Assembly: GCF_004010195.1 (NCBI RefSeq) | Contig: NC_057760.1 | Coordinates: 1,864,776-1,925,418, forward strand | Length of the DNA stretch: 60,643 nucleotides | Source: Chiloscyllium plagiosum | Lineage: Eukaryota | Reading direction: 5' to 3' | Shown: positions 694 through 26,629 of the stretch, piece after piece | Position numbering within the stretch: the stretch's first letter is position 1 | Layout of the letters: each line of letters opens with the position of its first letter | Made by a program: the position numbers and the translations under genes | Notes under the pieces: model-generated | Database searches by the model: none | What the model was told of the DNA's origin: nothing | What the model saw: only the letters and a program-made list of their open reading frames with translations

Positions 694-759
694 GACCAAC
701 TTCGTGGCAATAGGGACAGTTTGGAGAGAGCTTTAGAGGTAGCATTGCTCTGTAGCTAA

Positions 760-1292
760 TACTGTGCTGTCCCTGTCTTGGGAGAGTATAATAGGGGCAG
801 TGTAGAAGGAGTTTTACTCTGTATCTAACATGGTGCTGTCCCTGTATCCATGTCCTTGGAGTGTTTGATCAGGGACAATGTAGAGGGAGCTTTACTCTGT
901 ATCTAACCCCATGCTGTCCCTGTCCCTTGGAGTGTTTGATGGAGGCACAGTGTAGAGGGAACTTTACTCTGAATCTAACCCCGTGCTGTCCCTGTCCCTG
1001 GGAGTGTTTGATCAGGGACAATGTAGAGGGAGCTTTACTCTGTATCTAACCCCATGCTGTCCCTGTCCCTTGGAGTGTTTGATGGAGGCACAGTGTAGAG
1101 GGAACTTTACTCTGAATCTAACCCCGTGCTGTCCCTGTCCCTGGGAGTGTTTGATGGGGGACAGTGTAGAGGGAGAGTTACTCTGTATCTAACCCCGTGC
1201 TGTCCCTGTCCCAGGGTGTGTTTGATGGGGGGACAGTGTAGAGGGAGCTTTACTCTGTATCTAACCCCGTGCTGTCTCTGTCCCTGGGCGTG
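760..1292 (+). repeat. ~70-72 bp minisatellite array (ctttactctgtatctaaccccgtgctgtccctgtcc...gggagtgtttgatgggggacagtgtagagggag)
   Basis: Tandem units are directly visible. Confidence 0.95.
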
Positions 1293-1335
1293 TTTAATAA
1301 AGAGGTCTAAGCTAATCCGTGTGTGTTGATTTCAG

Positions 1336-1611
1336 CATCGGGGTAATGAGGATATCATGGTGAGACTGAAGACCACTCCAGCATCGATGAGGAAGTGTCT
1401 GGATAAAAAGGCCTGTGAGCTGATCAGGGATTTCCAGTCACATCTGTTGCTGAGTGAGGGGGAGAGTGAGAAGGAGGTCACTGAATTGAAGGAACATCTG
1501 AATGAGATGATTGAGAACTTCTGCATATCACACGGGAATACATTCACCTCAGCAATCGAGAAACTGAGGCAGGAGAAACTGAAAGAGTTTGAAAGTTTCA
1601 TCAATCAACAG
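1336..1611 (+). CDS. Internal coding exon, copy 1: 92-codon helical module, RNF112/atlastin-GBP-like stalk (tentative)
   Basis: Acceptor ttgatttcAG (1334-35) with an upstream CTAAT branch-like motif and donor CAG|GTAAGT (1612). The exon is 276 nt, open, phase 0-0: HRGNEDIMVRLKTTPASMRKCLDKK...KLKEFESFINQQ. The family call rests on recalled similarity and was not searched. Confidence 0.75.
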
Positions 1612-1649
1612 GTAAGTCAAATAAAACAAGAACAAAGCATTTAAGTATT

Positions 1650-1933
1650 GCAGTGTGGAGGGAGCTTTACTCCGTATCTAACCCCGTGCTGTCCCTGTCC
1701 TGGGAGTGTTTGATGGAGGCACAGTGTAGAGGGAGCTTTACTCCGTATCTAACCCCATGCTGTCCCTGTCCTGGGAGTGTTTGATGGGGGGGACAGTGTA
1801 GAGGCAGCTTTACTCCGTATCTAACCCCGTGCTGTCCCTGTCCTGGGAGTGTTTGATGGGGGGGACAGTGTAGAGGGAGCTTTACTCTGAATCTAACTCC
1901 CTGCTATCCCTGTCCTGGGAGTATTTGATGGGG
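1650..1933 (+). repeat. 72-bp-family minisatellite in the intron between exon copies 1 and 2
   Basis: About four tandem units. Confidence 0.95.
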
Positions 1934-1984
1934 ATGTCAAAGCTGAGCATTTCTCTCAATTTAATCTGCATGTATTGATTTCAG

Positions 1985-2251
1985 CAGCAGGATAACAAGG
2001 ATATACTGAAGAACACTCCAGCATCGATGAGGAAGTGTCTGGATAAAAAGGCCTGTGAGCTGATCAGGGATTTCCAGTCACATCTGTTGCAGAGTGAGGG
2101 GGAGAGTGAGAAGGAGGTCACTGAATTGAAGGAACATCTGACTGACAAGATTGAGAAATTCTACAGATTGTACCGGAATACATTCGCCTCAGCAATCGAG
2201 AAACTGAGGCAGGAGAAACTGAAAGAGTTTGAAAGTTTCATCAATCAACAA
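1985..2251 (+). CDS. Internal coding exon, copy 2 (89 codons) of the same module
   Basis: Acceptor gtattgatttcAG (1983-84) and donor CAA|GTAAGT (2252). The exon is 267 nt, open, phase 0-0, and 9 nt shorter in frame than the other copies: QQDNKDILKNTPASMRK...FINQQ. Confidence 0.75.
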
Positions 2252-2289
2252 GTAAGTCAAATAAAACAAGAACAAAGCATTTGAGTATT

Positions 2290-2789
2290 GCAGTGTGGAG
2301 GGAGCTTTACTCCGTATCTAACCGCGTGCTGTCCCTGTCCTGGGAGTGTTTGATGGGGGGGACAGTGTAGAGGAAGCTTTACTCCGTATCTAACACCGTG
2401 CTGTCCCTGTCCTGGGAGTGTATGATGGGGGGGACAGTGTAGAGGGCGCTTTACTCTGAATCTAATCCTGTGCTGTCCCTGTCCTGGGAGTGTTTGATGG
2501 GGGGACAGTGTAGAGGGAGCTTTACTCTGAATCTAACCCCATGTTGTCCCTGTCCTGGGAGTGTTTGAAGAGGGGACAGAGTAGAGGGAGCTTTACTCCG
2601 TATCTAACCCCGTGCTGTCCCTGTCCCTGGGAGCGTTTTATGGAGGACAGTGTAGAGGCAGCTTTACTCTGTATCTAACCCCGTGCTGTCCCTGTCCTGG
2701 GAGCGTTTGATGTGGGGACAGTGTAGAGGGAGCTTTACTTTGTATCTAACCCCGTGCTGTCCCTGGAATGGGGGGGACAGTGTAGAGGG
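2290..2789 (+). repeat. 72-bp-family minisatellite running into a gap
   Basis: Tandem units. Confidence 0.95.
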
Positions 2790-3289
2790 NNNNNNNNNNN
2801 NNNNNNNNNNNNNNNNNNNNNNNNNNNNNNNNNNNNNNNNNNNNNNNNNNNNNNNNNNNNNNNNNNNNNNNNNNNNNNNNNNNNNNNNNNNNNNNNNNNN
2901 NNNNNNNNNNNNNNNNNNNNNNNNNNNNNNNNNNNNNNNNNNNNNNNNNNNNNNNNNNNNNNNNNNNNNNNNNNNNNNNNNNNNNNNNNNNNNNNNNNNN
3001 NNNNNNNNNNNNNNNNNNNNNNNNNNNNNNNNNNNNNNNNNNNNNNNNNNNNNNNNNNNNNNNNNNNNNNNNNNNNNNNNNNNNNNNNNNNNNNNNNNNN
3101 NNNNNNNNNNNNNNNNNNNNNNNNNNNNNNNNNNNNNNNNNNNNNNNNNNNNNNNNNNNNNNNNNNNNNNNNNNNNNNNNNNNNNNNNNNNNNNNNNNNN
3201 NNNNNNNNNNNNNNNNNNNNNNNNNNNNNNNNNNNNNNNNNNNNNNNNNNNNNNNNNNNNNNNNNNNNNNNNNNNNNNNNNNNNNNNNN
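2790..3289. other. Assembly gap (500 N)
   Basis: N run. The round size suggests a placeholder length. Confidence 0.99.
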
Positions 3290-3771
3290 TCCCAGGACAC
3301 GAACAGCACGGGGTTAGATACAGAGTAAAGCTCCCTCTATACTGTCCCCCCATCAAACACTCCCAGAACAGGGACAGCACAGGGTTAGATACAGAGTAAA
3401 GCTCACTCTACACTGACCCCCATCAATCATTCCCACAGACAGTGTGAGCTCGGTGTTAGATACAGAGTTATGGTCCCTCTACACTGACCCCCATCCCAGG
3501 GACAGCACGGGGTGAGATACAGAGTAAAGCTCCCTCTACACTGTCCCCACCAACCCAGGACAGGGACAGCACAGGGGAAGAGACAGAGTAAAACTCCCTC
3601 TACACTGTCCCCCATCAAACACCCCCAGGACAGGGACAGCACAGGGTTAGATACAGAGTAAAGCTCCCTCGACACTGTACCCCCCATCAAACACGCCCAG
3701 GACAGGGGCAGCATGGAGTTAGATAGAGAGTAAAGCTCTCTCTACACTGTCCCCCAACAAACACTCCCAGG
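3290..3771 (-). repeat. 72-bp-family minisatellite, opposite orientation to the array left of the gap
   Basis: gggttagatacagagtaaagctccctctacactgtccccc units. Confidence 0.95.
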
Positions 3772-4285
3772 AAAATCATGTCTCACAAACTTGATTGAGG
3801 TTTTTGAAGAAGTAACAAAGAAGATTGATGAGGGTAGAGCAATAGATGGGAACTATATGGACGTCAGTCAGGCATTCGACAAGGTTCCCCATGGGAGACT
3901 GATTAGCAAGGTCAGATCTCATGGAATACAGGGGGAACTAGCCATTTGGATACAGAACTGGCTCAAAGGTAGAAGACAAAGGGTGGTAGTGGAGGGTTGT
4001 TCTTCACACTGGAGGCCTATGACCAGCGGAGTGCCACAAGGATCAGTGCTGGCCCCTCTACCTTTTGTCATTTATATAAATGATTGCTGCCAGAGGATGA
4101 GGTGGAGGCTGGTACAATTGCAATATTTAAGAGGCATTTGGATGGGTATATGAACAGGAAGGGTTTGGTAGGATATGGGCCGGGTGCTGGCAGGTGGGAC
4201 TGGATTGGGTTGGGATATCTGGTCAGCATGGACGGGATGGACCGAAGGGTCTGTTTCCATGCTGTACATTTCTATGACTCTATGA
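3772..4285 (+). mobile_element. CR1-clade LINE fragment: RT segment joined by an internal deletion to the 3' end
   Basis: Translation contains [13 protein letters not shown] and [20 protein letters not shown], then [14 protein letters not shown] and a (ctatgact)n tail. Confidence 0.9.
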
Positions 4286-7200
4286 CAGGGGCAGCATGGG
4301 GTTAGATACAGAGTAATGGTCCCTCTACACTGTCCCCCATCCCAGGGACAGTACGGGGTTAGATATAGAGTAAAGCTCTCCCTACACTGTCCCCCAGCAA
4401 AGAGTGTTCAGGACAGGGACAGCATGGGGTTGGATACAGAGTAAAGTTATCTCCACTTATGCCTGGACCAAATCCTCGTAGGACAGGGACAGCATGGAGC
4501 TAGATACAGAGTAATGGTCCCACTACGCTGTCCCCCATCCCAAGGAAAGCACGGGGTTAGATACAGCGTAAAGTTCCATCTGCAATGTATCCCATCAAAC
4601 ACGCCCAGGACATGGGCAGCACGGGGTTAGATACAGAGAAAAGCTCCATCCACACTGTACCCCCATCAAACACTCACAGGACAGGAGCAGCACGGGATTA
4701 GATACAGAGTAATGGTCTCTCTACACTGTCCCCCACCCCAGGGAAAGCACGGGGTTAGACAAAGCATAAAGTTCCATCTACACTGTCCCCTCATCAAACA
4801 CTCCCAGGGCAGGGGCAGCACGGGATGAGATACAGAGTAAAGCTACCTCTATACTGTTCCCCCATCCCAGCGAGAGCACGGGGTGAGATACAGTGTATAG
4901 ATACAATGTAAAGCTAAATCTACACTGATCCCCCCATCAAACACTCCCAGGGACAGGGACAGCATGGGATTAGATACAGAGTAAAGCTCCCTCTACACTG
5001 TCCCCCACCCCAGGGAAAGCACGGGGTTAGACAAAGCATAAAGTTCCATCTACACTGTCCCCCCATCAAACACTCCCAGGGCAGGGGCAGCACAGGGTTA
5101 GATACAGAGTAAAGCTCTCTCTACACTGACCCCCATCAAACACGCCCAGGGACAGGGACAGCACGGGGTTAGATACAGAGTAAAGCTCCCTCTACACTGA
5201 CCCCCATCAAACACGCCCAGGGACAGGGACAGCATGGGGTTAGATACAGAGTAAAGCTCTCTCTACACTGACCCCCATCAAACACTCCCAGGGACAAGGA
5301 CAGCACAGGGTTAGATACAGAGTAAAGCTTCCTCTACACTGTCCCCCCATCAAACACTCCCAGGGACAGGGACAGCATGAGGTTAGATACAGAGTAAAGC
5401 TCCCTCTACACTGTCCCCCCATCAAACACTCCCAGGGACAGGGACAGCACAGGGTTAGATACAGAGTAAAGCTCTCTCTACACTGTCACCCCATCAAACA
5501 CTCCCAGGGACAGGGACAGCACGGGGTTAGATACAGAGTAAAGCTCCCTCTACACTGTCACCCCATCAAACACTCCCAGGACAGGGACAGCACGGGGTGA
5601 GATACAGAGTAAAGCTCCCTTTACACTGATCCCCCATCAAACACTCCCAGGACAGGGACAGCACGGGGTTAGATACAGATAAAGCTAAATCTACACTGTC
5701 CTCACAATCCTGGACAGGGTCAGCATGAGGTTAGATACAGAGTAATGGTCCCACTACGCTGTCCCCCATCCCAGAAACAGCACGGGGTTAGATACAAAGT
5801 AATGGTCCCTCTACATTGCCCGCATCCCAGGGACAGCACGGGGTTAGATACAGAGTATAGCTCACTCTACACTGTTCCCCATACCAGTGAGAGCATGGGG
5901 TTAGATACAGAGTAAAGCTCACTCTACACTGTCCTCACCATCTCAGGACAGGGACAGCACGGGGTTGGATACAGAGTAATGGTCTCTCGACACTGTCCCC
6001 CACCCCAGGGAAAGCACGGGGTTAGATAAAGCAGAAAGTTCCGTCCACACTGTCCCCCCATCAAACACTCCCAGGGCAGGGGCAGCACGGGGTTAGATAT
6101 AGAGTAAAGCTCCCTCTACACTGTCCCCTTTAAACACTGCCAGGACAGAGACAGCACAGGGTTAGATTCAGAGTAAAGCTCCATCCACACTGTCCCCCCA
6201 TCAAACACTCCCAGGGACAGGGACAGCACGGGGTTAGATACAGAGTAAAGCTCCCTCTACACTGTTCCCCATCAAACACCCACAGGGACAGGGACAATAT
6301 GGGGTTAGATACAGAGTAAAGCTCCCTCTACACTGTCCCCCATCAAACACTCCCAGGGACAGGGACAGCATGGGGTTAGATACAGAGTAAAGCTCCCTCT
6401 ACACTGTCCCCCCCATCAAACACTCCCAGGGACAGGGACAGCACAGGGTTAGATACAGAGTAAAGCTCCCTCTACACTGTCCCCCATCCCAGCGAGAGCA
6501 CGGGGTTAGATACAGAGTAAAGCTAAATCTATACTGTCCCCACCATCCCAGGACACGGACAGCACGGGGTTAGATACAGAGTAAAGCTCCCTCTACACTG
6601 TCCCCCATCCCAGCGAGAGCATGGGGTTAGATACAGAGTAAAGCTCCCTCTACACTGTCCTCCCATCAAACACTCCCAGGGACAGGGACAGCACAGGGTT
6701 AGATACAGAGTAAAGCTCCCTCTACACTGACCCCCATCAATCATTCCCACAGACAGTGACAGCACGGGGTTAGATACAGAGTTATGGTCCCTCTACACTG
6801 ACCCCCATCCCAGGGACAGCACGGGGTGAGATACAGAGTAAAGCTCCCTCTACACTGTCCCCACCAACCCAGGACAGGGACAGCACAGGGGAAGATCCAG
6901 AGTAAAGCTCCCTCTACACTGACCCCCATCAAACACTCCCAGGGACAGGGACAGCACGGGGTTAGATACAGAGTAAAGCTCCTTCTACACTGTCCCCCAT
7001 CAAACATCCCAGGACAGGGACAGCACGGGGTGAAATATTGAGTCATGCTACCTGTACACTGTCCCCCATCCCAGGGACAGCAGGGGGTTAGGCATAGAGT
7101 AAAGCTGCCTCAACACTGTCACCCTATCAAAACCTCCTGGGTCAGGGACTGCACGGGGTGAGATACAGTGTTATCCCTCCTGTACACTGTCCCGCATTCC

Positions 7201-7660
7201 AGGGAGAGTAGGGAGTTAGACACAGAGTAAATTTCCCTCTATACTGTCCATCACATCAATCACACCCAGGACAGGGACAGCTCGGGGTTAGATACAGAGT
7301 AAAGCTCCTTCTACACTGTCCCCCATCAAACACTCCCAGGGACAGGGACAGCACGGGGTTAGATACAGAGTAATGGTCCCTCCACACTGTCACCCCATCC
7401 CAAGAAAAGCAAGGGGTTAGATACAGAGTAATGCTATCACTATACTGTTCCCCCATCAAACACGCCCAGGACAGGGTCAGCACGGAGTTAGATACAGAGT
7501 AAAGCTCCCTCTACACTGTCACCCATCAAACACTCCCAGCACAGGGAAAGCATGGGGTTAGATACAGAGTAAAGCCCACTCAACACTGTCCCCCATCAAA
7601 CACGCCCAGGACAGGGACAGCACGGGGTAAGATACGGAGTAAAGCTCCCTCCACACTGCA
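4286..7660 (-). repeat. Long diverged 72-bp-family minisatellite array
   Basis: Continuous tandem units with length variants. Confidence 0.95.
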
Positions 7661-7697
7661 ATACTCAAATGCTTTGTTCTTGTTTTATTTGACTTAC

Positions 7698-7973
7698 CTG
7701 TTGATTGATGAAACTTACAAACTCTTTCAGTTTCTCCTGCCTCAGTTTCTCGATTGCTGAGGCGAATGTATTCCGGTACAAACTGTAGAATTTCTCAATC
7801 TTGTCAGTCAGATGTTCCTTCAATTCAGTGACCTCTTTCTCATTCTCCCCCTCACTCATCAACAGATATGGTCGAAAATTCTGAATCAGCTCATCTGCCT
7901 TTTTATCCAGACACTTCCTCATCGATGCTGGAGTGGTCTTCAGTATCACCATGATATCCTCATTACCCCGATG
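7698..7973 (-). CDS. Internal coding exon, copy 3 (92 codons) of the helical module
   Basis: Minus-strand acceptor atttcAG, donor CAG|GTAAGT (acttac at 7692-7697), 276 nt open: HRGNEDIMVILKTTPASMRKCLDKKADELIQNFRPYLLMS...FVSFINQQ. Confidence 0.75.
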
Positions 7974-8013
7974 CTGAAATCAACACACACGGATCAGCTT
8001 AGACCTCTTTATT

Positions 8014-8555
8014 AAACACGCCCAGGGACAGAGACAGCATGGGGTTAGATACAGAGTAAAGCTTCCTCCACACTGTCCCCCACCCTCCATCCCAGGACAG
8101 GGACAGCACAGGGTAAAGCTCCCTCTATACTGTCCCCCCATCAAACACACCCAGGGACAGGGACAGCACGGGGTTAGATACAGAGTATAGCTCCCTCTCC
8201 CCTGTCTCCCCATCAAACACTCGCCAGACAGGGACAGCACGGGGTTAGATATTGAGTAAAGGTCCATCTAAACTGTCCCCCCATGAAACACTCCCAGGGA
8301 CAGGGACAGAACGGGGTTAATTACAGAGTAAAGCTCCCTCTACACTGTCCCCCATCAAATCCTCCCAGGGATAGGGACAGTACGGGGTTAGATACAGAGT
8401 AAAGCTCCCTCTACACTGTCCTCCATCAAACACTCCCAGCACAGGGGCAGCACGGTGTTAGATATAGAGTAAAGCTCCTTCTACACTGTCCCCCCATGAA
8501 ACACTCGCCAGGCGGGGACAGCATGCGGTTAGATTCTGAGTAAAGGTCCATCTCC
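8014..8555 (-). repeat. 72-bp-family minisatellite
   Basis: Tandem units. Confidence 0.93.
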
Positions 8556-9485
8556 AGGTTTTTAAGGAGCAGGGTGAGCAGCCAAAAGTATTGGTACACA
8601 TCGGTACAATGATATGGGTAGGAAAAGGGTGGAGGACCTGGAAAGAGAATATGGGGAGTTTAGGTTGGAAGCTAAGAAGTAGGATGACCAGAGTAGTAAT
8701 CTCAGGATTGCTACCAGTGCCATGGGATCATGGGACTAGGAACAGAGAGTGAGTGCAGCAAAACACGTAGCTGCAGGGCTGGTTTGGGAAGGAGGAATTC
8801 AGATATATAGATCATTGGGATACCTTCTGGGGAAGGTGGGACCTGTACAAGAAGGACAGGTTGCACCTGAACTGGAGGGGCACCAATACCCTGGGCAGGA
8901 GGTTCGGGAGAGTTTAAACGAGTTTGGCAGGGAGGTGGGAACTGGAGCCATGGATCAGAGGATGGGATAGCTGGTGAACAGGCAGACACAGCATGCAGAG
9001 ATTCTGTGAGGAAAGATAGAGATTTGATAGGGCAAAGATGCAGTCAGTGTGATGTGTTGAAGTGTATCTATTTATTGGGAGTTTTCTAGAGAACCCCCAG
9101 TAGCAACAGAGACACAGAGGAGCAGATTGGTCAGCAGATTTTGGAAAGATGCAGAAGTAACAGGGTTGTTGTCATGAGTGACTGCAACTTCCCTAATATT
9201 GAATGGTATGTCCTTGGTGCAAATAGTTGGATGGAGCAGATTTTGTCAGGTGTGTCCAGGAAGGATTCCTGACTCAATATGTAGATAGGCCGACTAGAGG
9301 GGAGGCCATATTGAATTTGGTGCTTAGCAATGAGCCAGATCATCGGAGGGAGAGCATTTTGGTGACAGTGATCACAACTCCCTGACCTTTACTATAGTCA
9401 TGGAGAGGAATAGGAGCAGTCAGTGTGGGAAAGTATTTAATTGGGGTAGGGGGAATTACAATATTATCAGGCAGGAACTGTGCAG
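8556..9485 (+). mobile_element. CR1-clade LINE 5' part: degenerate ORF1 esterase-like region and ORF2 AP-endonuclease pieces
   Basis: Motif remnants VLVHIGT, VVISGLLPVP, DRLHLNWRGTN (ORF1) and DCNFPNIEW, ILNLVLSNEP, FGDSDHNSLTF (endonuclease), broken by frameshifts and deletions. Confidence 0.85.
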
Positions 9486-10412
9486 TGTTACGACACGGGG
9501 TAAACCCCTCTGCTAATTTAAACCCGACACACAGATGCTCACCTCGTGCCATAATCTGTTAAAATTCAAGAGGCAAAGAACTATCCCAGAGGTCACTATT
9601 TAAAGTAAAATTTAACAATTTTATTCTTTAAGTCCTACAGGGAACATTAAAACAACAGCTATTTCCAACTTCTTTCTCTTAAAGCTATCTTGGATCTCCC
9701 ACTCTACAATACTGGTCTGATAAAAGCTGAAAATGTGTTGCTGGAAAAGTGCAGCAGGTCAGGCAGCATCCAAGGAGCAGGAGAATCGACGTTTCGGGCA
9801 TGAGCCCTCCTTCAGGAATCCTGCTCCTTGGATGCTGCCTGACCTGCTGCGCTTTTCCAGCAACACATTTTCAGCTCTGACCTCCAGCATCTGCAGACCT
9901 CACTTTCTCCTGGTCTGATAAAAAACCCTGATTAAATTTGCAACAACATTCAACTTTCAAAACCAGCCGTCTCAGAATCTTCTCTTTGTATCTTCCTCTA
10001 TAGATTTTCCTCTGTCATCTTTTCTTCAGTATTCTGCTTCACAGGTCTCCATATGAAGAGGTTCCCTTCAGACACTTATCCATCTTACAGTCGAGACTTG
10101 TTGGTGCTTGGCAGTTCACCCCCTAACTGTACAAAATGTCTGGTTTCATACCCCAAAACATCGGATCATTTCATTGGGTTTGATGTCATCAAAAACATTA
10201 TATTTCAAATTTGATGTGAGTTTGGTATTTTGGGGCATAATTTACACTGAGTGGCTCAATTTGAATTTGTCTCTGTTCCACAGCAACACAACTATTTGTT
10301 TCGACCAAGTGTTAGAATTTTACCTTGTTCAGGACCCTCTGCGCTTTCAGTCAGTCCTTGCTCACTTTTCAATTCTCTTAAAGGAACAGTACACACCTAC
10401 ACCTTCATAACA
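9486..10412 (-). repeat. 3' LTR of the Gypsy element, interrupted at 9726-9909
   Basis: TGTTA...TAACA termini, adjacent to the polypurine tract at 10413-10423. Confidence 0.85.
9726..9909. mobile_element. Foldback Penelope-end mini-element with a hammerhead-like core
   Basis: Inverted arms gctgaaaatgtgttgctggaaaag / cttttccagcaacacattttcagc and a 14-bp TSD ctggtctgataaaa (9712-9725, 9910-9923). The minus-strand core reads CTGAAGG-A-GGGC-TCAT-GCCC-GAAAC-GTC, with one core change. Confidence 0.75.
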
Positions 10413-10423
10413 CCTCCCTCTTT
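10413..10423 (-). promoter_or_regulatory. Polypurine tract of the Gypsy element
   Basis: AAAGAGGGAGG on the minus strand immediately before the LTR TG. Confidence 0.85.
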
Positions 10424-10579
10424 AAGAAAAATGAACCATCATAATAACAAGATAGCTTTTTTTCCCTCTATTCTTTAACCACATTACCATAACTTACAGA
10501 GAACTTTAATCTAAGTTCATTTTGAACTTCTCACCATATATGTAACATTGGATGAATACCAATCTCATCAGTTAAATCT

Positions 10580-11760
10580 GCGATAACGCATTTTCTTACG
10601 ACCTGATTTGATGTGAATTGAAAGTCTGTAACATGAAACTCCAATGAAATAGTCTCACATTCTTTCTTTCAAGTGTTCCAAGAATGTAAGAGGATTGTGA
10701 TCCGTGTACAAACCTTCTCCAACACACTGTTCATGATATACACATTAAAATGTTATAAGGCCAGTACCAATCTCAATAATACTTTTTCAATCGTGGAGTA
10801 TTTCCTCAGGTGGATGCTGAGTTTCTTTGAAAAGTAACCAACTGGCAGTTCGATCCTATCCTCATCTTCCTGTAGCAATACACCTTCAACTCCTCGGTCA
10901 CTAGCACTGATGGCAACTTTGAAGGGTTTAGAAAAGTTTGGAGTAACTCAAATTGGAGCAGGGGTTCATATTGCTTTTAAATGGTCGAATGCCTCCTGGT
11001 ATTGTTCTGTCCACCGAAACTTTATGTTCTATCCCAAGAACATCACCTCTGCTTTCGTGAATTCAGTTTTATTTACGTTTATCACCAGTTCTGCTTCTTG
11101 TAGTCATTCAACAAGCTCTGCCAACTGATCTTTCCAGATCTTATTAAAGATCACTACATCGTCCAAGTGGACTGTACAGTTTGTTAGCCCAGCTACAACT
11201 CTGTTCATGAGTCTTTGGAATGTGGAGGGTGCATTCTTCATTTCAAAGGACATCACTTTGAACTGATATAGCCCATTTGGGGTTACAAACGCAGAAATTT
11301 CTTTAGCCGCCTCTGATAAAGGTACCTGCCAGTAACCATGCAGTAAGTCCAACTTGATGGTGTAATTGGCTTGTCCAACTTTCTCGATATAGCCCTCCAA
11401 TCTCGGTATGGAATAGGAGTCTGATTTTGTAACAGCGTTGACCTTCCGATAATCCACACAAAATCGACAAGTCCCATCCAGTTTGGGAGCTATGATAATC
11501 AGCAAACTTCACTCGCTCTGGCTTGGTTCGATGATGTCCTCCTCAAGCATATCCTCCACCTCCATCTGGACCTGTCTGGCTTTGAAAGGATTAAGCCGAT
11601 AGGGGTGTTGTTTTATTGGAACAGCATTCCTTACGTCTACTTCATGTATAAGAGCATTAGTCCTCCACATCTGATTCCTACATATGTCCTCATGCTGCAG
11701 GAACAAACCTTTTAACGGTGTTCTTTGCTCCTGAGACAGATAGCTTATTAATCTATTCCA
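10580..11760 (-). pseudogene. Gypsy RT and RNase H coding remnant
   Basis: ORFs 11509-11706 (PIKQHPYRLNP) and 11104-11505 (RT core), followed by frameshifted RNase H motifs. Confidence 0.9.
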
Positions 11761-12118
11761 CTCCTCAAGGACTTTTCATTTTTTAACATATTTTGAGGCA
11801 CCTCAAAATCCACATCATTTGGATTTGATTCCTCACTCTGCGGGGCAGTAACTAACACCTGTTTCTCCATTTCTTTCTCTCTTCGAGTTCTCTGGAGGGG
11901 ACCTACACATTCATTTATAACCCACATGAAAAAGTACTTTGTTTGTGTACCTTAGCCTGAGTCTTTTGTACCCCTCAGTGACCTCCTGCAGGTAGTATGT
12001 CCTGTAACACCTCCTGTCTATGCTAACGGCAACACAATCTGGTACACTTCGGCCCATTTCTCCTCTGCACTAACCTGCCGTGGTCTCCATTTCCACCTTA
12101 GGATTCTATCCTTCAGAT

Positions 12119-12329
12119 ATGATTTGGAGATGCCGGTGTTGGACTGGGGTGTACAAAGTTAAAAATCACACAACACCATGTTATAGTCCAACAGGTTTAA
12201 TTGGAAGCACTAGCTTTCGGAGTGACGCTCCTTTATCCACCTGATGATGGAGTGCCGCTCTGAAAGCTAGTGTGCTTCCATTTAAACCTGTTGGACTATA
12301 ACCTGGTGTTGTGTGATTTTTAACTTTGT
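12119..12329. mobile_element. Foldback Penelope-end mini-element (second family) inserted in the Gypsy pol
   Basis: About 70-bp inverted arms at 12153-12222 and 12258-12329. The same terminus ends the Penelope copies at 16857 and 19460. Confidence 0.75.
12238..12272 (+). ncRNA. Minimal type I hammerhead ribozyme motif
   Basis: cac-CTGATGA-t-GGAG-tgccg-CTCT-GAAA-GCTA-gtg gives the conserved core, helix II, a palindromic AGCT mini helix III and a cac/gtg helix I. Confidence 0.7.
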
Positions 12330-12659
12330 CCATTCTTCAGACAATAACCCTCAGTAACATTTTTTGACTCCTTTTCAGTGAATCCATCCACACATATATA
12401 TCTTTTATCATCTTGTCTTTCTGTTGCAAGTCCCTTAGCCTTTCAGGACTAAACACTTCTGTCTGACCCTCTGCCTGTTCAGGATTTTCCTGCACCATTA
12501 CATCAAACAGGTTGTCTGCTGACTAAACCTCAATTCCTTAATCTTTCTGTTTAGTTTCTGTTTGGTGCTGTGACTTGTGACTGTGGGATCTGGTTACTAC
12601 ACAGTTTGGGAAAATACTAGGATATTTTTCTTTTAACTCCTCAGTTTCTTGGTCTTATT

Positions 12660-13004
12660 AGACTTTTTTCTTCGAATCCCTACAGTGTGAAAACAGGCCC
12701 CTTGGCCCAACAAGTCCACACTGACCCTCGGAAGAGTATTCCACCCAAACCCATTCCCCAACATTTACCCCTGACTAATGCACCGAACCCACATATCCCT
12801 GAACACTATGGGCAATTTAGCATGGCCAATTCACCTACTTTGCACATCTTTTGGATTGTGGGAGGAAACCGGAGCATCCAGAGGAAACCCACGCAGACAC
12901 AAGGAGAATGTGCAAACTCCACACAGTCACCCAAGGCTGGAATTGAACCCTGGTCCCTGGCGCTGTGAGGCAGCAGTGCTAACCACTGTTCCATTGTGCC
13001 ACCC
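12660..13004 (-). mobile_element. HE1-type tRNA-derived V-SINE
   Basis: Reverse complement shows A/B-box-like motifs (cagtggttagcactgctgcctcacagc, ggttcaattcc) and the V-domain gtgtggagtttgcacattctcc...ggtttcctccc. Confidence 0.9.
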
Positions 13005-13019
13005 AAGAAAAAAACTAAA

Positions 13020-14652
13020 GGTTTTCCTTGGGCTTCTCCACAACAAAGGGTGTTACTCCCACCTTGGATCCTGCTAAATGATTCCTAAGAACAAACTGGA
13101 TTCCTGGAACTGACACTTTTACTTCCCCAGTCCAGAGTTGGCACTCCGATCTGATCTTACACAGGTGAACGTCACATTTCTGTCCATCTTTCCACAAATG
13201 ACCACACTCTCGGGTAACATGTCAGAAAGAGTGCAAATACATTCATCTCTTACTATTAGTGACCGATTAGATCCTGTATCTCTCAAAATTATAACTTCTT
13301 GACCTTCTCCCCTTGTTCTTTCTAAGTAAACTTTACCCACAGCGGTGAATTCTTCATAGAGGTCAGGCATTAACTCCATACTCAGCCCCTGCCTAGGCTG
13401 GGCACACTCCTTTGGATCCTCGACTGTTTTTGGGGTTTCCTTTACTACTTTCACTAATGGCACTGCCTTAGCTTCTTTTACCACATCTTTTCCCACAGCC
13501 TTTCTTTAATGACCAGCACTGTGACTTTACGTGCCCCACCTTATCACAGTGGAAACACCTAAGGCATTTCACCTCCATTCCACCCTCTGGGGCTTCGTTT
13601 TTATCCTGTGGTAAACGATTACGAGTGTGTTTTACTCTTTCTTTTGTAGTGTAGGATCTCCCCTTCTTCCAATTTCTATCCCTCACAGGATGGAATTCTT
13701 GCCGGAAGCTGAAGTTTGCCTGATGCACCAATGTGTATTCATCTGCCATCTGTGCTACTGTTCTCACTTCTTGAACTTTCTGTTCATCCACATGAATCCT
13801 TACCATCTCTGGGAGTGAGTATTTAAACTCCTCCAGCAGAATAATCTCTCTTACAGCCTCATAGGTCTTACCTATTTTTAAGGCCTGCACCCGCAGCTAT
13901 CAAAATGGCTATGTTTAATTCTTTCAAACTCAACGTAAGTCTGACCTGGTTCCTCTTTTATGTTTCTGAACTGCTGTCTATATGCTTCTGGTACCAACTG
14001 ATAAGCACTTAAAATAGTCTTTTTGACATCTCCATAATCTCTTAACCCCTCATCTGACAACACTGCAAATACCTCACGAGCTCTGTCTACCAGTTTAGTC
14101 AGAACTAGCATTACCCACAAGTTCTCTGACCACTCCATCTGCCTAGCCAATGTTTCAAATGAAATAAAGAAGACTTCAACATCTTTCTCATCAAAATGCA
14201 GCAATGTTTTAACATAATTGTACACATCATCACCTTCTCCCTTCATCATCATCCTGTTAACTTGACTTTCCTGACTAACTCACAACTTCTTAAGTTGAAA
14301 TTCTCTCTCCCTTTCTCTCTCTGTTTTTCCTCTCTCTCTGCTCAGCTAAGAACCTTCTCTCTTTTTTTCCTCTCTCTCTTTTTCTCCTCTCATGGCTCTT
14401 CTTTCCTTTATCTTCTAACTCCATTTGCCTCAATTGCAATTAAAGTTTGTCTAACTCTACTGCACTTGTCTGTTTCTCTGATACACCTAAGTGCCTGACT
14501 AATTTCAGCTTTCCTTTTGTCCCTGGTTAAACCCATTCTAACCTATCTGCTAATTCTAAAAGTATGCCCTTCCTCTGTCTTTCTAAACTTTCCTGGCAAA
14601 TTTGGGAAGCATCTTCAAACCCCAGAACCTCTTCAGCAATGTTAAAAGCCAT
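13020..14652 (-). pseudogene. Gypsy gag and protease coding remnant
   Basis: ORFs 13878-14252, 13468-13890 (CX2CX4HX4C knuckle) and 13119-13496 (LRDTGS). Confidence 0.9.
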
Positions 14653-14824
14653 TTCTCTCACTTTGAATATAACCAACCACAAGTAAAGAAATTAAACAAA
14701 TTGTCTTTTATTTAAAGATCTGGGACACTAATCGGCAAGTGTTTAAACCTACTGGGATCTTTTGTACCTTAAATCTGTTCAAATCTCAGATTAAATCTGT
14801 CTAAACCTGTCCAAATCTATCCAA

Positions 14825-14843
14825 ATCCCAGAACCGAGCCCCA
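14825..14843 (-). promoter_or_regulatory. Primer-binding site, tRNA-Pro-like
   Basis: TGGGGCTCGGTTCTGGGAT lies 3 nt after the 5' LTR CA and resembles the tRNA-Pro PBS TGGGGGCTCGTCCGGGAT. Confidence 0.75.
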
Positions 14844-14846
14844 AAT

Positions 14847-15578
14847 TGTTACAACATGGTGGTGAACCCTTCTGTTAATTCAACCAAACACCCAGAAAAG
14901 CTCACCTCACCTCACCTCATGATATGTTAAAATATGAGGGTCAGAGAAGTCCCCAAATTCCACTATTTAAAGAAAGTAACATCAATTTTTTTTAAACTCT
15001 AAAAGTGAACATTAAAAGAATATTCACAACTCTAAGCCTCTCTTTCTCTTAACTGCTTATTCTCTGCCTCCAACGCTATAACAATATACTGTTCCAACAA
15101 AACACTTGTTAAAATTACATCAGCTTAATTTCAAAACCGTACAGCCACTGTCATCGTCGGTGTCTGTCTTCTTCCAGCTGAAGATCTCCCTGGGTTGTCT
15201 TCTTTCTTTTACTGTGAATATGTTTGATATTCACAGTACCTTTGATTGAGAGTAATTCCTAATTTCTTGAATCTGTTTTGATGGCAGTTGCTCTGTCATT
15301 TTTCTATCCCCAACTTCGGATTGTCACATTGGTTCAATGTTGGCAAAACAATAAATTCAAACTCAATTGGGTTTTAGTATCCTGAGGCATAATTCAAACT
15401 GATTGATTAAATTCAAATTGTTGTCAAAACAGCAACAAAACTCTGGTATCCCTTTCACAGCTGTGTGTTACATACTTTCAGTTTTCCAGTACCTCTGAGA
15501 CTGCTCTTGTTAGCTCTCAGTGCAGAATAGCATTCATTCTCTATTAAAGGTACAGTACACGCTTTCAACTTCATAACA
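14847..15578 (-). repeat. 5' LTR of the Gypsy element
   Basis: TGTTA...TAACA termini; homologous to, but clearly diverged from, 9486-10412. Confidence 0.85.
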
Positions 15579-15832
15579 TTAGACAAACTGCCAAAAATAA
15601 AACCGAATCAAACCAGAGAAAAGCTGAGCTGGGGGAACTGGCCATTCCCCTTTCATTGCACAAGTGGTTTTTTTAAACTTGTTAGCCTTTTACCTGAGGC
15701 AGTATCTGTTGCCTATCCAAACTGGCCCTGAAACCCATCCTAGCCAGACGTTTAGGAATTGCTGCTTTCATGACCTCTCTGAAAAGAAAAGCCAAGGACA
15801 ACAGAACCTTGTTAAAGGAGCAGCATCGTCAC
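15579..15832. mobile_element. Fragment of a probable different LTR
   Basis: Ends in aaaggagcagcatcgtcac, which reads as a (T)GTGACG-type terminus on the minus strand. It lies between the Gypsy LTR and a CR1 tail. Confidence 0.4.
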
Positions 15833-16152
15833 TCGATAGAGGTCGACAAGAGATGAGAGGCAGAGACAGAGTGGATAGCTAGAGACTTTTACCCAGGGCT
15901 ATCATGAAGGGACATAATTTTAAGGTGATTGGAGGAAGTTTCAGGGGAAATGTCAGAGGTAAGTTCTTTGCACAGAAAGTGGTGGGCGTGTGGAATGCAC
16001 TGCCAGCAGTGATTGTAGAGTCTGACAGATTAGGGACATGGGATGCTAGTAAAATGTAGGGTACATAGGTTAGTTTTATCTTGGAAAGAAGGCTGCCACA
16101 ACGTCAAGGGCCAAAGGGCCTGTACCGTGTTGTACTGCTCTATGTTCCATGC
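15833..16152 (+). mobile_element. CR1-clade LINE 3' end
   Basis: gggacataattttaagg...tggaatgcactgccag...gggcctgtaccgtgttgtactgctctatgttccatg, homologous to 22350-22700. Confidence 0.85.
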
Positions 16153-16580
16153 AATGACACAGTGATATCAACAAGTTTCATCCCAACATCAGACATAACA
16201 TGGACTCCTCTTTAGTATCTGTCTCATTCTTGGAAACATTCATCTCCATCAAGAACGGGCACCTCATTACCTCACTCTACCGCAAACCCATGGATAATCT
16301 CACAATGCTGCACTTCTCTATATTAGAACAGCCATCCCCTACGGACAAGCCCTACACATACACAGCATCTGTTCAGATGAGGGAGAATGCGACAGACACC
16401 TGAAGGTGCAGAAGGACACCCTCATAAGGACCGAGTACAATGCTCAACTCATCCATCGTCAGTTCTGAGATGCCACAGCGAGAAAGTGTATTGACCTCCT
16501 CAGGAGACAGACATGGGATACGACCAATAGGGTACCCTTCGATGTCCAGTTCTTCATGGGAGCGGAGAAACTACATCATG

Positions 16581-16664
16581 TCGATTGGGTTGGGATATCT
16601 GGTCGGTATGGACGGGTTGGACCAAAGGGTCTGTATCCATGCTTTACATCTCTATGACTCTATG
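16581..16664 (+). mobile_element. Short CR1 3' tail inserted in the Penelope element
   Basis: gattgggttgggatatctggtcgg...ctctatgactctatg matches the tails at 4200-4285 and 34445-34518. Confidence 0.85.
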
Positions 16665-16909
16665 TTCTTCGCAGCCTGCAATACATTATCAATGAGGACG
16701 AGCACCTCACCAAACCTTCTCTACGCCTTCAATTCTCACCTTCAAACAACCGCCAACCTTAAACCGACCACCGTTCGCAGCAAACTGCCCAGCCTTCAGG
16801 ACAACATTGACCACAACACCGTATAACCCTGTCACGGCAACCACTGCAAGATGTACAAAGTTAACGATCACACAACACCAGGTTATATTCCAACAGGTTT
16901 ATTTGGAAG

Positions 16910-16944
16910 CACTAGCTTTCAGAGTGCTGTTCCTTCATCAGGTG
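16910..16944 (-). ncRNA. Minimal hammerhead ribozyme motif in the Penelope 3' terminus
   Basis: Reverse complement cac-CTGATGA-a-GGA-acagcac-TCT-GAAA-GCTA-gtg; helix II is weakened. Confidence 0.6.
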
Positions 16945-17234
16945 GTTGTGGAGGACACAATTGTAAGACACAGAAATTATGGGAAAAGTTTACAGTATGA
17001 TGCAACTGAAATTATACATTGAAAAAGACCTTGATTTCTTGATTGTTTGTTAAGTCTCCCATCTGTTAGAGTGACCATGTCAGTTTCACTTCTTTCACAT
17101 GTAAGTCGCGAAACTTGTTAAAAAAGTTACATTCTCAGGTGAACTTTAACTACTGGTGTCAGCCTAGATAATGCGATGAAGGTGTTAGCCCCCTGTGTAA
17201 TGTTGTCTGTGCGATAATGTTTAGACTGATTCTA

Positions 17235-17542
17235 GCAGCATGGTGGCACAGTGGTTAGCAATGCTGCCTCGCAGCGCCAGAGACCCGGGATCAATTCCCG
17301 CCTCAGGCGACTGACTGTGTGGAGTTTGCACATTCTCCCCGTGTCTGCGTGGGTTTCCTCCGGGTGCTCCGGTTTCCTCCCACAGTCCAAAGATGTGCAG
17401 GTTAGATGAATTGGCCATGTTAAATTGTCCGTAGTGTTAGGTAAGGGGTAAATGTAGGGGTATGGGTGGTTTGCGCTTCGGCGGGTCGGTGTGGACTTGT
17501 TGGGCCGAAGGGCCTGTTTCCACACTGTAAAGTAATCTAATA
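17235..17542 (+). mobile_element. HE1-type V-SINE
   Basis: tggcacagtggttagc (A box), ggatcaattccc (B box), the V-domain, and a CR1-like 3' end gggcctgtttccacactgt. Confidence 0.92.
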
Positions 17543-18591
17543 CGTAGTAGCAGTAATCCAAGTGTTCTATTTAGAACATAGAACATAGAACAGTTCAGCG
17601 GGGGGGGGGGGGGGAGGTTGTGAGTGTCTGTGTGAGAGAGAGTGTATGTGTATGTGTGTAAATGTAAAGGGTCTAAGTCTGTGAGAGGGTGCATGTGAGA
17701 GTGTGGAAGTATGTGTGTCTGTTGGAGTGAGTGAGTGAGTGAGTGAGTGAGTGAGTGTGTGTGTGTAGTGCATGGTGGTCACCTGTAATGTGAGGGCATC
17801 CCTGTGGGTACCAAACTTAGCTATCAGCCTCTGCTCGGCCACTTTTCACTGCTGCCTGTCCCAAAGTCCGCATTGGAGGATGGTCACCCGAAGGTCTGGG
17901 GTCGAATGTCCCAGACTGCTGAAGTGTTCTCCAAATAGACGGGAACACTCCTGGCTGGTGATTATTGTGTGGTGCACATTCATCTGTTGCAGTAGCCCCT
18001 GCTCAGTTGCACCAATGTACCATCCCTCAGAGCATCCTTGCCTGCAGGGTATGTGATATACAATGTTGGCTGAGTCACCTGTAGTGTCACGTGAAGCCAA
18101 GGTCCCAATTAAGGCCATAGGTGAAAGTGGGTACTGCACATGGGAGGTGTCCCCACACATAAAGGTGGTATCCATGTCGACACTCTGACACGTATTGCAG
18201 CACCTACCGTGACAGGGTTGTCTCCAAATCATGACTGCAAGACGTGTCAGAGTATCGACATGGATACCACCATTACATGTGGGGATACCACCCACCATGT
18301 ACACAGGTATTCATGTGACTCAGCCAACATTGTATATTTCATACCCTGCGGGCAAGGATGCCCTGAGGGATGGTACATTGGTGAGACCAAACAGATGCTA
18401 CGACAATGTAATAATCGCCAGACAGGAGTGTTCCCTCCCAGTCAGGGGAACACTTCAGCAGGTGGGGACATTTGGCCTTGGACCTTCGGGTGACCATCCT
18501 CCAAGGTGGACTTCAGGATAGGCAACAATGCAGAGTGGCTGAGCAGAGGCTGATAGCCAAGTTCAGTACCCATGGGGATGGTCTTAACTGG

Positions 18592-18775
18592 AGTCAAGAT
18601 TAGAGTGGTGCTGGAAAAGAACAGCAGGTCAGGCAGCATCCAAGGAGCAGGAAAACTGATGTTTCGGGCAGGAGCCTTCATCACCTCCTCGGATGCTGCC
18701 TGACCTGCTGTGCTTTTCCAGCACCACTCTAATCTTGACTCTAATCTCTAGCATCTGCTGTACCCACTTTCGCCT
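18592..18775. mobile_element. Foldback Penelope-end mini-element
   Basis: Inverted arms agtcaagattagagtggtgctggaaaag / cttttccagcaccactctaatcttgact and a 14-bp TSD atggYcttaactgg (18578-18591, 18776-18789). The hammerhead core is decayed. Confidence 0.75.
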
Positions 18776-19476
18776 ATGGCCTTAACTGGGACTTTGGCTT
18801 CATGTGACACTACAGGTGATCCCATTGTACTACACAATCTCTCTCACACACACGCGAGCACACACACACTCTCACTCTCACGTACACACACACACAAACA
18901 CACTCTCGCCGCTTCCCCCACAACACACACACACACAAACACTCTCTCTCTATCTCTCTCTTCCCCCTTCACCCACACACACACACTCGCACTCTCAGAT
19001 GCGCACACACTCACACATAAATAAGTCAATGGGGCAAATTTGCATTTACAGAATAGTATTTGCAGATACATTCTATTTTGTTCAAAAAACACATTTGTAG
19101 GCACTCACTCCTAGTTTGGAAATAAAACTAGTCAGGGTTGAAATACAGGCAGTCTCTAACCTCACACCTTTAATGCATTGCCTGAGCTGAGATGTCACTT
19201 TTCTTGGGAATATGACTTGAAAGAAATTCTGGCATTTACATATTAATGAATCAAAACCTGTATCCTCAATTTAAAAGACTAAAGATTTAACAGCATTCTT
19301 GGTTTGTTCAATATTTCTCATCAGTTGTATGACACTAATCATTTGCTATAAATTCTGTGTCCTGTCCCACTAGCTACCTGTCAAAAGAGCAGCGCTCCGA
19401 AAGCTTGTACTTCCAAATAAACCTGTTGGACTATAAACTGGTGTTGTGAGACTTTTAACCATTTTTTTTGACTTAC

Positions 19477-19752
19477 CTGTTGATTGATGAAACTTTCAAA
19501 CTCTTTCAGTTTCTTCTGCCTCAGTTTCTCGATTGCGGAGGTGAATGTATTCCCGTGTGATATGCAGAAGTTCTCAATCATCTCATTCAGATGTTCCTTC
19601 AATTGAGTGACCTTCTTCTCACTCTCCCCCTCACTCAGCAACAGATGTGACTGGAAATCCCTGATCAGCTCACAGGCCTTTTTATCCAGACACTTCCTCA
19701 TCGATGCTGGAGTGGTCTTCAGTATCACCATGATATCCTCATTACCCCGATG
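19477..19752 (-). CDS. Internal coding exon, copy 4 (92 codons) of the helical module
   Basis: Acceptor atttcAG, donor CAG|GTAAGT (acttac at 19471-19476), 276 nt open and nearly identical to copy 1. Confidence 0.75.
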
Positions 19753-19792
19753 CTGAAATCAACACACACGGATTAGCTTAGACCTCTTTATT

Positions 19793-20140
19793 AAACACGC
19801 CCAGGGACAGAGACAGCACGGGGTTAGATACAGAGTAAAGCTCCCTCTACACTGTCCCTCCATCATACACTCCCAGGGACAGGGACAGCACGGGGTTAGA
19901 TACAGAGTAAAGCTCCCTCTACACTGTCCCTCCATCATACACTCCCAGGGACAGGGACAGCACAGAGTTAGATACAGAGTAAAGCTGCCTCTACACTGTC
20001 CCCCGCCATCCCAGGGATAAGGACAGCACAGGGTTAGATACAGAGTAAAGCATTCCTCTACAGTGTCACCCATCAAACACTCCCAGGGACAGGGACAGCA
20101 CGGTCTTAGACACAGAGTAAAGCTCCCTCTACACTGTCCC
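19793..20140 (-). repeat. 72-bp-family minisatellite
   Basis: Tandem units. Confidence 0.95.
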
Positions 20141-20535
20141 ATAGAACATAGAATAATACAGCACCGAACACGCCCTTTGGCCCACGATGTTGTGCTGAAC
20201 ATTTGTCCTAGCTTGAGCACCCATCCATGTACCTATCCAATTGCCGCTTAAAGGTCACCAAAGATTCTGACTCTACCACTCCCACAGGCAGCGCTTTCCA
20301 TGCCCCCACCACTCTCTGGGTAAAGAACCCATCCCTGACATCTCCCCTATACCTTCCACCCTTCACCTTAAATTTATGTCCCCCTGTAACACTCTGTTGT
20401 ACCCGGGGAAAAAGTTTCTGACTGTCTACTCTATCTGTTCCCCTGATCATCTTATAAACCTCTATCAAGTCACCCCTCATCCTTCGCCGTTCCAACGAGA
20501 AAAGGCCGAGCACTCTCAACCTATCCTCGTACGAT
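20141..20535 (-). mobile_element. CR1-clade LINE 3' end
   Basis: Open frame SYEDRLRVLGLFSLERRRMRGDLIEVYK...FKRQLDRYMD and a (ttctatg)n tail. Confidence 0.93.
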
Positions 20536-23370: not shown

Positions 23371-23589
23371 AATCAGTGTTGGAATGGTTACCAAAGTGGC
23401 AAATTTCACTTGCTTTAGTTTGTTTTGTAAATTCTCCTTTAACTGTGTTTGGAAAAGCCTGGGTTTCGGCAGCAGATATTAATTTCATTGCCTTTTTGTT
23501 CATCTTTGTTCTGATGAAGTCACATGATTAATAACAAATTATATCTGCAGATCCAGTTTTATAATTCCTATTTGATCTGTTTTGCTATT

Positions 23590-25665: not shown

Positions 25666-25674
25666 GTTAGAAAC

Positions 25675-26625: not shown

Positions 26626-26629
26626 ACAC

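Follow-up and report, generated by a model that had tools for sequence, protein, structure and literature searches.

The window analysed here, a 60,643-nt stretch of the Chiloscyllium plagiosum genome (G000:C51:1864776-1925418, where G000 is the assembly; positions without a prefix are those of the window), carries four stalk-module exons, E1 to E4, which are very probably tandem copies of one exon that preserves the frame and is homologous to part of the middle domain of RNF112, and which likely belong to a single RNF112-like GTPase gene with a predicted head, a chain of as many as twelve three-helix bundles and a hydrophobic membrane anchor. Splicing of an E-type exon, the continuation of an E-type exon through two divergent modules (M10 and M11) into a terminal exon within one contig, and orthologues composed of a GTPase, modules and a tail are directly observed. 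Below, P-, X- and C-numbers denote public proteins, sequencing runs and scaffolds or contigs of G000, respectively.

Stalk-module exons and their transcripts

The original prediction, made from the letters of the window alone, described four paralogous exons of 276, 267, 276 and 276 nt with AG and GTAAGT ends and open frames, and all of these properties hold, as do positions and strands (Table 1). Each exon is bounded by a TTTCAG acceptor and a GTAAGT donor (4/4), and frame 0 is the sole open frame in each, a frame that stays open by chance in 0.05-0.19% of 20,000 shuffles of an exon of equal make-up. Pairwise identity is 88-98%, with E4 differing from E1 at 5 of 276 nt and E2 from E3 at 9% of sites, and no fifth module copy was found within the window. 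The product of E1 is identical to residues 352-443 of P0001, a protein with the source label Chiloscyllium plagiosum. E2 ends in CAA/gt instead of CAG/gt and is a mosaic of an E1/E4-type middle and an E3-type 3' block, and a repeat has been inserted about 10 nt past the E4 donor. E2 also has a tandem acceptor, CAG CAG (1979-1990), and the Stegostoma isoforms P0006 and P0052 differ by one Gln at the equivalent place.

Contigs of four runs (X10, X11, X2 and X1) were compared with positions 1296-2292; X10 and X11 share one study, X12 comes from another and X1 carries a different organism label. Removal of the intron between 1611 and 1985, proposed as a check on the exons, was seen in two public runs: the 373-nt GT..AG intron is skipped exactly in contigs of X10 and X11 (two of the four runs), with the joint at 1608>1982 and depths of 487 and 14.5, respectively. 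This difference in depth hints at tissue- or condition-dependent expression, contig depth being a poor measure. In both runs an E1/E4-type 3' end is spliced to E2, and the unique intron flanks are uncovered by contigs. One X10 contig corresponds to E2 at 2014-2212 with no differences, and the letters specific to E4 (at E1 positions 1474, 1483, 1551 and 1573) are found all four in X11, three in X2 and in X1, and two in X10. Another X10 contig joins an E-type end (CAG) to an E1/E3/E4-type start, and one crosses from the 3' end of an E-type exon to the opening bases of M10.

At the 3' end of the gene, a 1,182-nt X10 contig spans the terminal exon, which is transcribed with an open frame, and extends beyond it into M11 at the 3' end of that exon; the additional 565 bases are made up of M11 and M10 (537) and 28 bases of an E-type end. 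The same M11>terminal joint appears in X12, and X15, which is on record as RNA, has seven raw reads on the terminal exon. Both contigs entering this exon do so from M11, and no module skipping into it was seen in these two. X2 gave no terminal-exon contig and no run on record as RNA was listed for E2; neither is counted as evidence. The phase 0-0 borders and the junctions in transcript contigs agree with the prediction of symmetric, frame-preserving, spliced exons of a modular helical protein.

Identity of the gene

A profile of ten modules retrieved 40 proteins at E<=0.001 among 1.84 billion. The GBP GTPase domain (PF02263) is present in 16 of these 40 relatives, in one of them together with a RING, and the source names are RNF112-like, uncharacterised or descriptive misnomers. 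Names and sources, which cover 20 of the 40 relatives plus part of P0001/P0002, include bamboo, epaulette, zebra, cat, hound, white and basking sharks, turtles, frogs and alligator. Shark relatives consist of a GBP-type GTPase, one to nine modules and a hydrophobic tail, the order in Stegostoma P0052 being GTPase-U-U-E-M10-M11-terminal. Compared to solved structures, P0045 matches Xenopus RNF112 (9JJU) at E 7.7e-75, atlastins at about 1e-39 and GBPs at 4e-7 or worse, and its alignment to 9JJU takes in module 1, which falls on the final two helices of the middle domain. The module profile also matches single-module RNF112 with a probability of 92 (newt) and 78 (coelacanth), and the 19-residue hydropathy peak is 2.28 in the P0002 tail and 2.2-2.4 in single-module RNF112. 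On these sequence comparisons the module corresponds by homology to the second and third helices of the middle domain in RNF112. Pfam searches of single exons gave sub-threshold helical matches only. Apolipoprotein A-IV, the best PDB sequence match of the module profile (E 2.5e-5), was rejected as an amphipathic-helix likeness once GTPase-bearing relatives had been found.

The traits of the RNF112 family found here are a PF02263 GTPase with motifs G1-G4 (linked to E1-E4 by orthology), a three-helix middle domain and a Gly/Ala-rich hydrophobic segment, while two canonical traits, an N-terminal C3HC4 RING (in the shark proteins) and a single middle domain, are lacking. No RING Pfam match was found in the 12 shark-labelled proteins listed, which include P0045, P0043 and P0052; canonical RNF112 differs from these three orthologues in having a RING. 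Matches at E<=1e-4 to GBP_C (PF02841), to the RHD3 GTPase (PF05879) and to the Sey1 three-helix-bundle family (PF20428) were likewise absent from all 40 relatives, and Sey1p/RHD3 was only the third feature-level look-alike in the atlas used.

Xenopus RNF112 (9JJU; PMC12012479) has the same combination of a GTPase with an arginine finger, a three-helix middle domain and a C-terminal hydrophobic segment, with one middle domain as opposed to up to twelve in the shark gene, and the main text of that paper contains no occurrence of 'shark' or 'duplicat'. Atlastins, the second-best solved relatives, also combine a GTPase, a three-helix bundle and a membrane anchor, but have a single bundle, and the match to them is confined to the GTPase part. 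Sey1p/RHD3, as described in PMC4576867, resembles the shark protein in its chained three-helix bundles, where the last helix of one continues into the first of the next, but has four fixed bundles (fungi and plants) and belongs to other Pfam families, whereas the shark bundles are recent exon-coded near-copies of variable number. GBP1, GBP2 and GBP5 share the GTPase clan, and according to PMC4576867 the start of the GBP1 stalk is two bundles arranged as the first two of Sey1p; the sequence match to GBPs is far weaker (see above), and the shark relatives lack PF02841.

Probable remaining exons of the gene

Although an array of four exons had been predicted, the genome holds nine close copies on C51 and three divergent ones elsewhere, giving a total of twelve module exons. 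A protein search of G000 gave nine matches, all on C51, namely E1-E4 and five further exons (U1-U5), which lie 7-15 kb upstream on the + strand and are open and in phase 0-0; U1 as query returns the same nine, with anything further only at E>0.006. The divergent modules lie on tiny contigs, M10 on C30283, M11 on C61282 and the terminal exon on C18897, and only one copy of each was found in G000. The proposed genome-wide search for copies accordingly placed the exon at one locus and in fragments of the same gene.

The exons that encode the GTPase are dispersed: exon 1 is on C17, exons 2-3 are on C84494 and exons 4-6 on C99885, and a helix-1 exon of 75 nt, separate from the module exons, lies on C34267. 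No GTPase exon was found in the window, in the 41 kb beyond E4 or in the 100 kb upstream, and a PF02263 search of C51 gave no match. The GTPase exons keep G1 (GEERKGKS, with the arginine finger position retained), G2 (TTKG), G3 (DTEG) and G4 (RDW), the arginine of G1 being needed for hydrolysis according to section 6 of PMC12012479, which gives the motif roles. Length divisible by three and equal phase on both sides were found in all 11 internal module exons and all six other internal exons located, and every exon border located, including those of the GTPase exons, is in phase 0. We infer a gene order of GTPase exons, helix-1 exon, U1-U5, E1, E2, E4, E3, M10, M11 and terminal exon, with the pieces on eight or more scaffolds, the assembly being fragmented.

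The public model P0001 joins U1, U3, U4, U5, E1 and E2 to a last exon (Table 1), which is likely spurious because another copy of the repeat, near 14,000, matches it at 46% identity; the real transcript, which runs E-type>M10>M11>terminal exon, differs from P0001 in its 3' end. A retroelement-like relic at 23850-26500 (+) supplied this false exon. The source name of P0001, 'serine/threonine-protein kinase dst2-like', was rejected, as no kinase family is found in it. In the relative P0002 the continuation is instead a divergent module, followed by a hydrophobic tail rich in Gly and Ala; in G000, M10 and the terminal exon correspond to these two parts. In the assembly the frame of the hydrophobic tail is shifted by an extra base at L021:762 (C18897), which is missing from the X10 transcript contig (X12 has no coverage there) and is an assembly error or an allele.

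Two observations concern paralogues. U2 (G000:C51:1854659-1854934) groups with paralogue modules of the P0045/P0051 type (support 0.99) though it lies inside the array, and it is omitted from P0001; its placement in the tree suggests module exchange between paralogues. Distant RNF112-like/GBP-family exons on C16843, C54734 and C9:84608566-84659893 belong to other paralogues in G000.

Predicted structure of the stalk

A single module is predicted by AlphaFold with a mean predicted local distance difference test (pLDDT) of 91 and helices at 2-11, 15-36 and 41-91. The full-length model of Stegostoma P0006 (pLDDT 77, predicted template modelling score (pTM) 0.50) shows the GTPase fold and helix 1, followed by modules that each consist of a 22-residue helix and a 42-55-residue helix, and five of the latter each span two adjacent bundles. 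Compared with the three-helix middle domain of RNF112, each module exon is predicted to encode the last two helices of one bundle and the first helix of the bundle that follows, and the exon borders do not coincide with the folding domain, the first helix 1 having its own 75-nt exon. Modelled in this manner, the twelve module exons of G000 would give a stalk of at most twelve bundles. PMC4576867 describes the same arrangement for Sey1p, whose four three-helix bundles are chained; stalk length matters for fusion there, and a shortened stalk blocks it.

Variation in module number

Modules were counted with an iterated profile in 175 proteins, of which 33 unlabelled rows were excluded from the tallies and many rows are isoforms. 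One module is the rule in squamates (15 of 16 rows), urodeles (3/3), coelacanth (2/2) and marsupials (8/8). The number ranges from 1 to 9 in 19 shark rows, from 1 to 10 in 72 turtle rows (49 with two or more), from 3 to 7 in seven frog rows, from 0 to 4 in 10 gar rows and from 2 to 5 in three crocodilian rows. The E-type module is single in Stegostoma and fourfold in Chiloscyllium plagiosum. A modular protein of variable module number had been predicted, and the counts indeed differ between genes and species. A FastTree phylogeny of 136 GTPase domains, rooted at the midpoint, has long and short forms mixed within lineage clades, and the modules cluster by gene and lineage, a tree pattern that may reflect repeated expansion or concerted evolution. 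Public isoforms differing by one module are found in Stegostoma (967 versus 876 residues, an M10-type module being skipped), Mustelus (605 versus 513) and C. punctatum (770 versus 675), all of them unconfirmed gene models.

The variable sites of E1-E4 fall into incompatible blocks, the 5' end setting E2 apart, the middle setting E3 apart and the 3' block uniting E2 with E3 against E1 with E4. Of 40 adjacent variable sites 28 share a pattern, a number reached in 0 of 100,000 permutations, and this block-wise mosaicism argues for exchange inside the exons. The ratio of nonsynonymous to synonymous substitution (dN/dS) between close copies is 0.5-2.0 on few sites and is not used as evidence.

Alternative explanations

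Several points weigh against the assignment of E1-E4 to one expanded RNF112-like gene. Most of the runs used, X10-X12 among them, lack a record as RNA and are taken for RNA from their spliced joints and bare intron flanks. Letters specific to E3 were not seen in the matches listed for three same-label runs and occur only in X1, the run of another organism label, and a joint from E4 to E3 is not distinguishable from E1>E4 or similar joints because the exon ends are shared. The GTPase exons and U1-U5 would be tied to E1-E4 in G000 through orthologues, with no RNA link, and for this gene G000 yielded no exons covering the approximately 100 residues that end the GTPase domain. Exon 1 on C17 is slightly nearer to the paralogue P0045 (88%) than to P0043 (85%), and by this likeness could belong to a paralogue instead. 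The homologue counts come from public gene models, which are error-prone in repeats, and the pTM of 0.50 for P0006 does not establish a rod shape. A Foldseek search with the isolated, out-of-register module gave no match at E<=0.001, with RNF112 only 9th and 11th.

The orientation of E4 and E3 bears on how many E exons are genuine. The block carrying them is bounded by two 500-N gaps (2790-3289 and 27269-27768), and such uniform gaps mark long-range scaffolding joins. It was likely reversed by scaffolding, its true place being downstream of E2 on the same strand, since satellite sense, the transcribed E4 letters, the order of modules in relatives (E3-type before M10 in P0002) and the fact that M10, M11 and the terminal exon occur once each all argue for the strand of E2. 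An E3-type middle stands before the M10 orthologue in P0002 and E3 groups with that module, which makes E3, on sequence likeness, likely the final E-type exon ahead of M10. The block could instead be an uncollapsed second haplotype of E1-E2, or E4 and E3 could be short-read chimeras, leaving fewer true E exons. This would account for the flanking gaps, for the five differences between E4 and E1 and for the E4 letters of E1-type contigs in X11, X2 and X1, E1's own combination not being clearly seen; it is nevertheless improbable, as the introns are not colinear (373 nt for E1-E2, 11.5 kb for E4-E3), and as the 8 kb before E1 and the 7 kb before E4 have just two short repeat matches in common, so that E1 and E4 are not simple alleles. 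In addition, E3 differs from E2 at the 9% of sites noted above, contigs of independent runs match the E2 and E4 haplotypes each, and X10 has both E-type>E2 and E-type>E1/E3/E4-type joints. Still less probable is a real inversion, with E4 and E3 in a second, convergent gene copy or in an inverted, silenced duplicate: the opposite strand is what the assembly shows and RNF112-like paralogues exist in G000 and in relatives, but M10, M11 and the terminal exon are single, the flanks of C51 searched (41 kb and 100 kb) hold no GTPase exon and the E4 letters are transcribed. That the units are transposon-borne or non-functional pseudo-exons is very improbable, being refuted by the spliced contigs unless these are artefacts. 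They do sit among repeats, and the terminal exon of the assembly has one extra base; the copies, however, are restricted to this gene, all 12 module exons are open up to that base and spliced where tested, the base is missing from the X10 contig, and orthologous proteins exist across sharks. The two outcomes named beforehand as fatal to the prediction, absence of spliced reads and genome-wide dispersal of copies by a transposon, are both contradicted by the data.

The original prediction further regarded the 72-bp minisatellite around the exons as the source of homology for unequal crossover, by which cassettes would be gained and lost between individuals. Embedding in this satellite is true of E1-E3 but not of E4, which has no satellite over 10,920 nt on its 3' side; the predicted orientation stands, as the satellite is in exon sense on every side where it is present, and the predicted unique flank of about 40 nt holds on the 5' side (37-51 nt) and on the 3' side of E1-E3 (39 nt), the 3' side of E4 excepted. 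In favour of the satellite as the main driver, it lies in exon sense within 80 nt of all 13 stalk-region exons and is absent both from 76 kb around the six exons of the GTPase and from nine of ten further GBP-family loci (the tenth having one 22-nt match), and the unique flanks of the copies measure only 22-63 nt on satellite-bounded sides. Such a role is unlikely all the same and is not established, because the repeat is genome-wide (2,387 exact 33-mer matches across many scaffolds, reversed control 0), adjoins the single-copy helix-1, M10, M11 and terminal exons as well, and the exchange points lie inside exons. Selection on splice signals would likewise leave short unique flanks, and the stalk has also expanded in turtles, frogs, gar and crocodilians, in which the shark repeat was not looked for. 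The distribution fits a single entry of the satellite into the stalk introns followed by multiplication with them, and the satellite may help misalignment.

Other repeats and feature positions

A tract of fifty 72-bp satellite copies at 45115-48718 has a 99% match, the other tracts having 71-93%, and represents a recent amplification or an assembly artefact. A 33-bp satellite (54 copies) occupies 38185-39961, and a repeat of similar appearance by eye lies downstream of the terminal exon (L021:1-290). The transposon relics around the exons look mostly broken by eye, and those at about 10400-14700 (-) and 23850-26500 (+) are two related, broken retroelement-like relics, labelled by eye as long terminal repeat (LTR)/Gypsy.

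Table 1. Positions of exons, intron, satellite tracts and scaffolded block in the window.
Feature	Position	Strand	Remarks
E1, stalk-module exon	1336..1611	+	276 nt, 92 codons, phase 0-0
E2, stalk-module exon	1985..2251	+	267 nt, 89 codons
E3, stalk-module exon	7698..7973	-	276 nt, 92 codons
E4, stalk-module exon	19477..19752	-	276 nt, 92 codons
GT-AG intron between E1 and E2	1612..1984	+	373 nt: 39 unique, about 4 satellite units, 51 unique
72-bp minisatellite upstream of E1	734..1298	+	exon sense
72-bp minisatellite downstream of E2, into 500-N gap	2291..2789	+	
72-bp minisatellite tracts around E3	3290..8556	-	E3 sense
72-bp minisatellite tracts upstream of E4	19790..23315	-	E4 sense; broken by repeats
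Block with E4 and E3 between two 500-N gaps	3290..27268		24 kb
Last 'exon' of P0001	24294..24437	+	repeat-derived, not the real 3' end

Possible relationship to AHSP

Ten of the 40 relatives score at E<=1e-4 against the Pfam family of the alpha-haemoglobin stabilising protein (AHSP) of mammals, in most cases as a sum over the repeats. In P0024 a single stretch covers profile positions 3-83 of 87, with 30.6 bits at a cut-off of 27. With two profiles of short relatives, AHSP comes next after RNF112 in PDB, at E 1.7e-4 to 5.9e-4 versus 1.3e-3 for ApoA-IV with the first and at E 2.4e-3 versus 0.052 with the second. AHSP aligns in register across the border between helix 1 and the module (homologues P0024, P0035, P0022 and P0031; model md52f443d3db9), and Foldseek superposes module and AHSP at 1.2 Å over 60 columns, in a search with no match at E<=0.001. 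The AHSP profile had no match in 18 GTPase-bearing, mostly single-module proteins. A broad profile of 41 proteins says nothing about AHSP either way, as the best 60 matches listed for it are all GTPase/RING. On balance the evidence leans towards homology of AHSP with the bundle of the RNF112-like middle domain, by a thin margin over ApoA-IV, and AHSP may be derived from such a domain, its bundle having been freed.

Proposed mechanism and meaning

All exons of the gene would already have been in phase 0 before the expansion, and any duplication of a module exon would then insert exactly one bundle, retaining frame and fold because of phase 0 throughout and because the exon would correspond to helices 2-3 of bundle n together with the first helix of bundle n+1. 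Exchange between adjacent exon-plus-satellite units, by unequal crossover and conversion, would expand and shuffle the modules, and the product would be a long rod whose length can evolve. If the protein acts as RNF112, atlastin and Sey1p do, its tail-anchored molecules would dimerise head to head during GTP hydrolysis, with stalk length setting the distance of the head from the membrane; twelve bundles would measure about 45 nm if straight (about 25 helical residues per bundle x 0.15 nm).

Canonical RNF112 shows brain-restricted expression, GTP-dependent dimerisation and membrane remodelling. GBPs form a multi-copy, fast-changing family, are interferon-inducible and coat pathogen membranes, and carry a long back-folded helix and a CaaX motif where the shark family has a hydrophobic tail. 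Among putative roles, a GBP-like cell-autonomous defence on membranes is ranked first, at slightly less than an even chance, and tethering or fusion of organelles second, as a somewhat less likely proposal. Frame-preserving exon duplication, concerted evolution of neighbours and assembly collapse are familiar from spectrin, nebulin, LPA kringle IV-2 and NBPF/Olduvai, none of which, to our knowledge, is the mechanical stalk of a dynamin-superfamily GTPase. The parts of the system are known already, and the new element is the exon-multiplied architecture and its recurrence, neither of which was found in the literature searched, most subscription papers and supplements lying outside that search.

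Taken jointly, the data may describe a so far undescribed branch of vertebrate dynamin-superfamily GTPases, a possibility to which we give somewhat less than even credence, in which one exon equals one bundle and serves as a molecular ruler. Its stalk, of one to about twelve bundles, would have lengthened anew in sharks, gar, frogs, turtles and crocodilians, each time independently, would be polymorphic and tuned by splicing within species, and would set the reach of a defence or tethering GTPase, with AHSP as a freed single bundle. This would provide a testable origin for AHSP, and the mis-named public gene models, such as a 'kinase' without a kinase domain, are flagged. An out-of-register symmetric exon would represent a route by which a mechanical domain can be lengthened repeatedly. 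Stalk length is a central variable for membrane tethering and fusion by GTPases of the atlastin clan, and because the family would offer a natural series in which nearly identical heads sit on anything from one to about twelve bundles, the effect of reach becomes directly testable.

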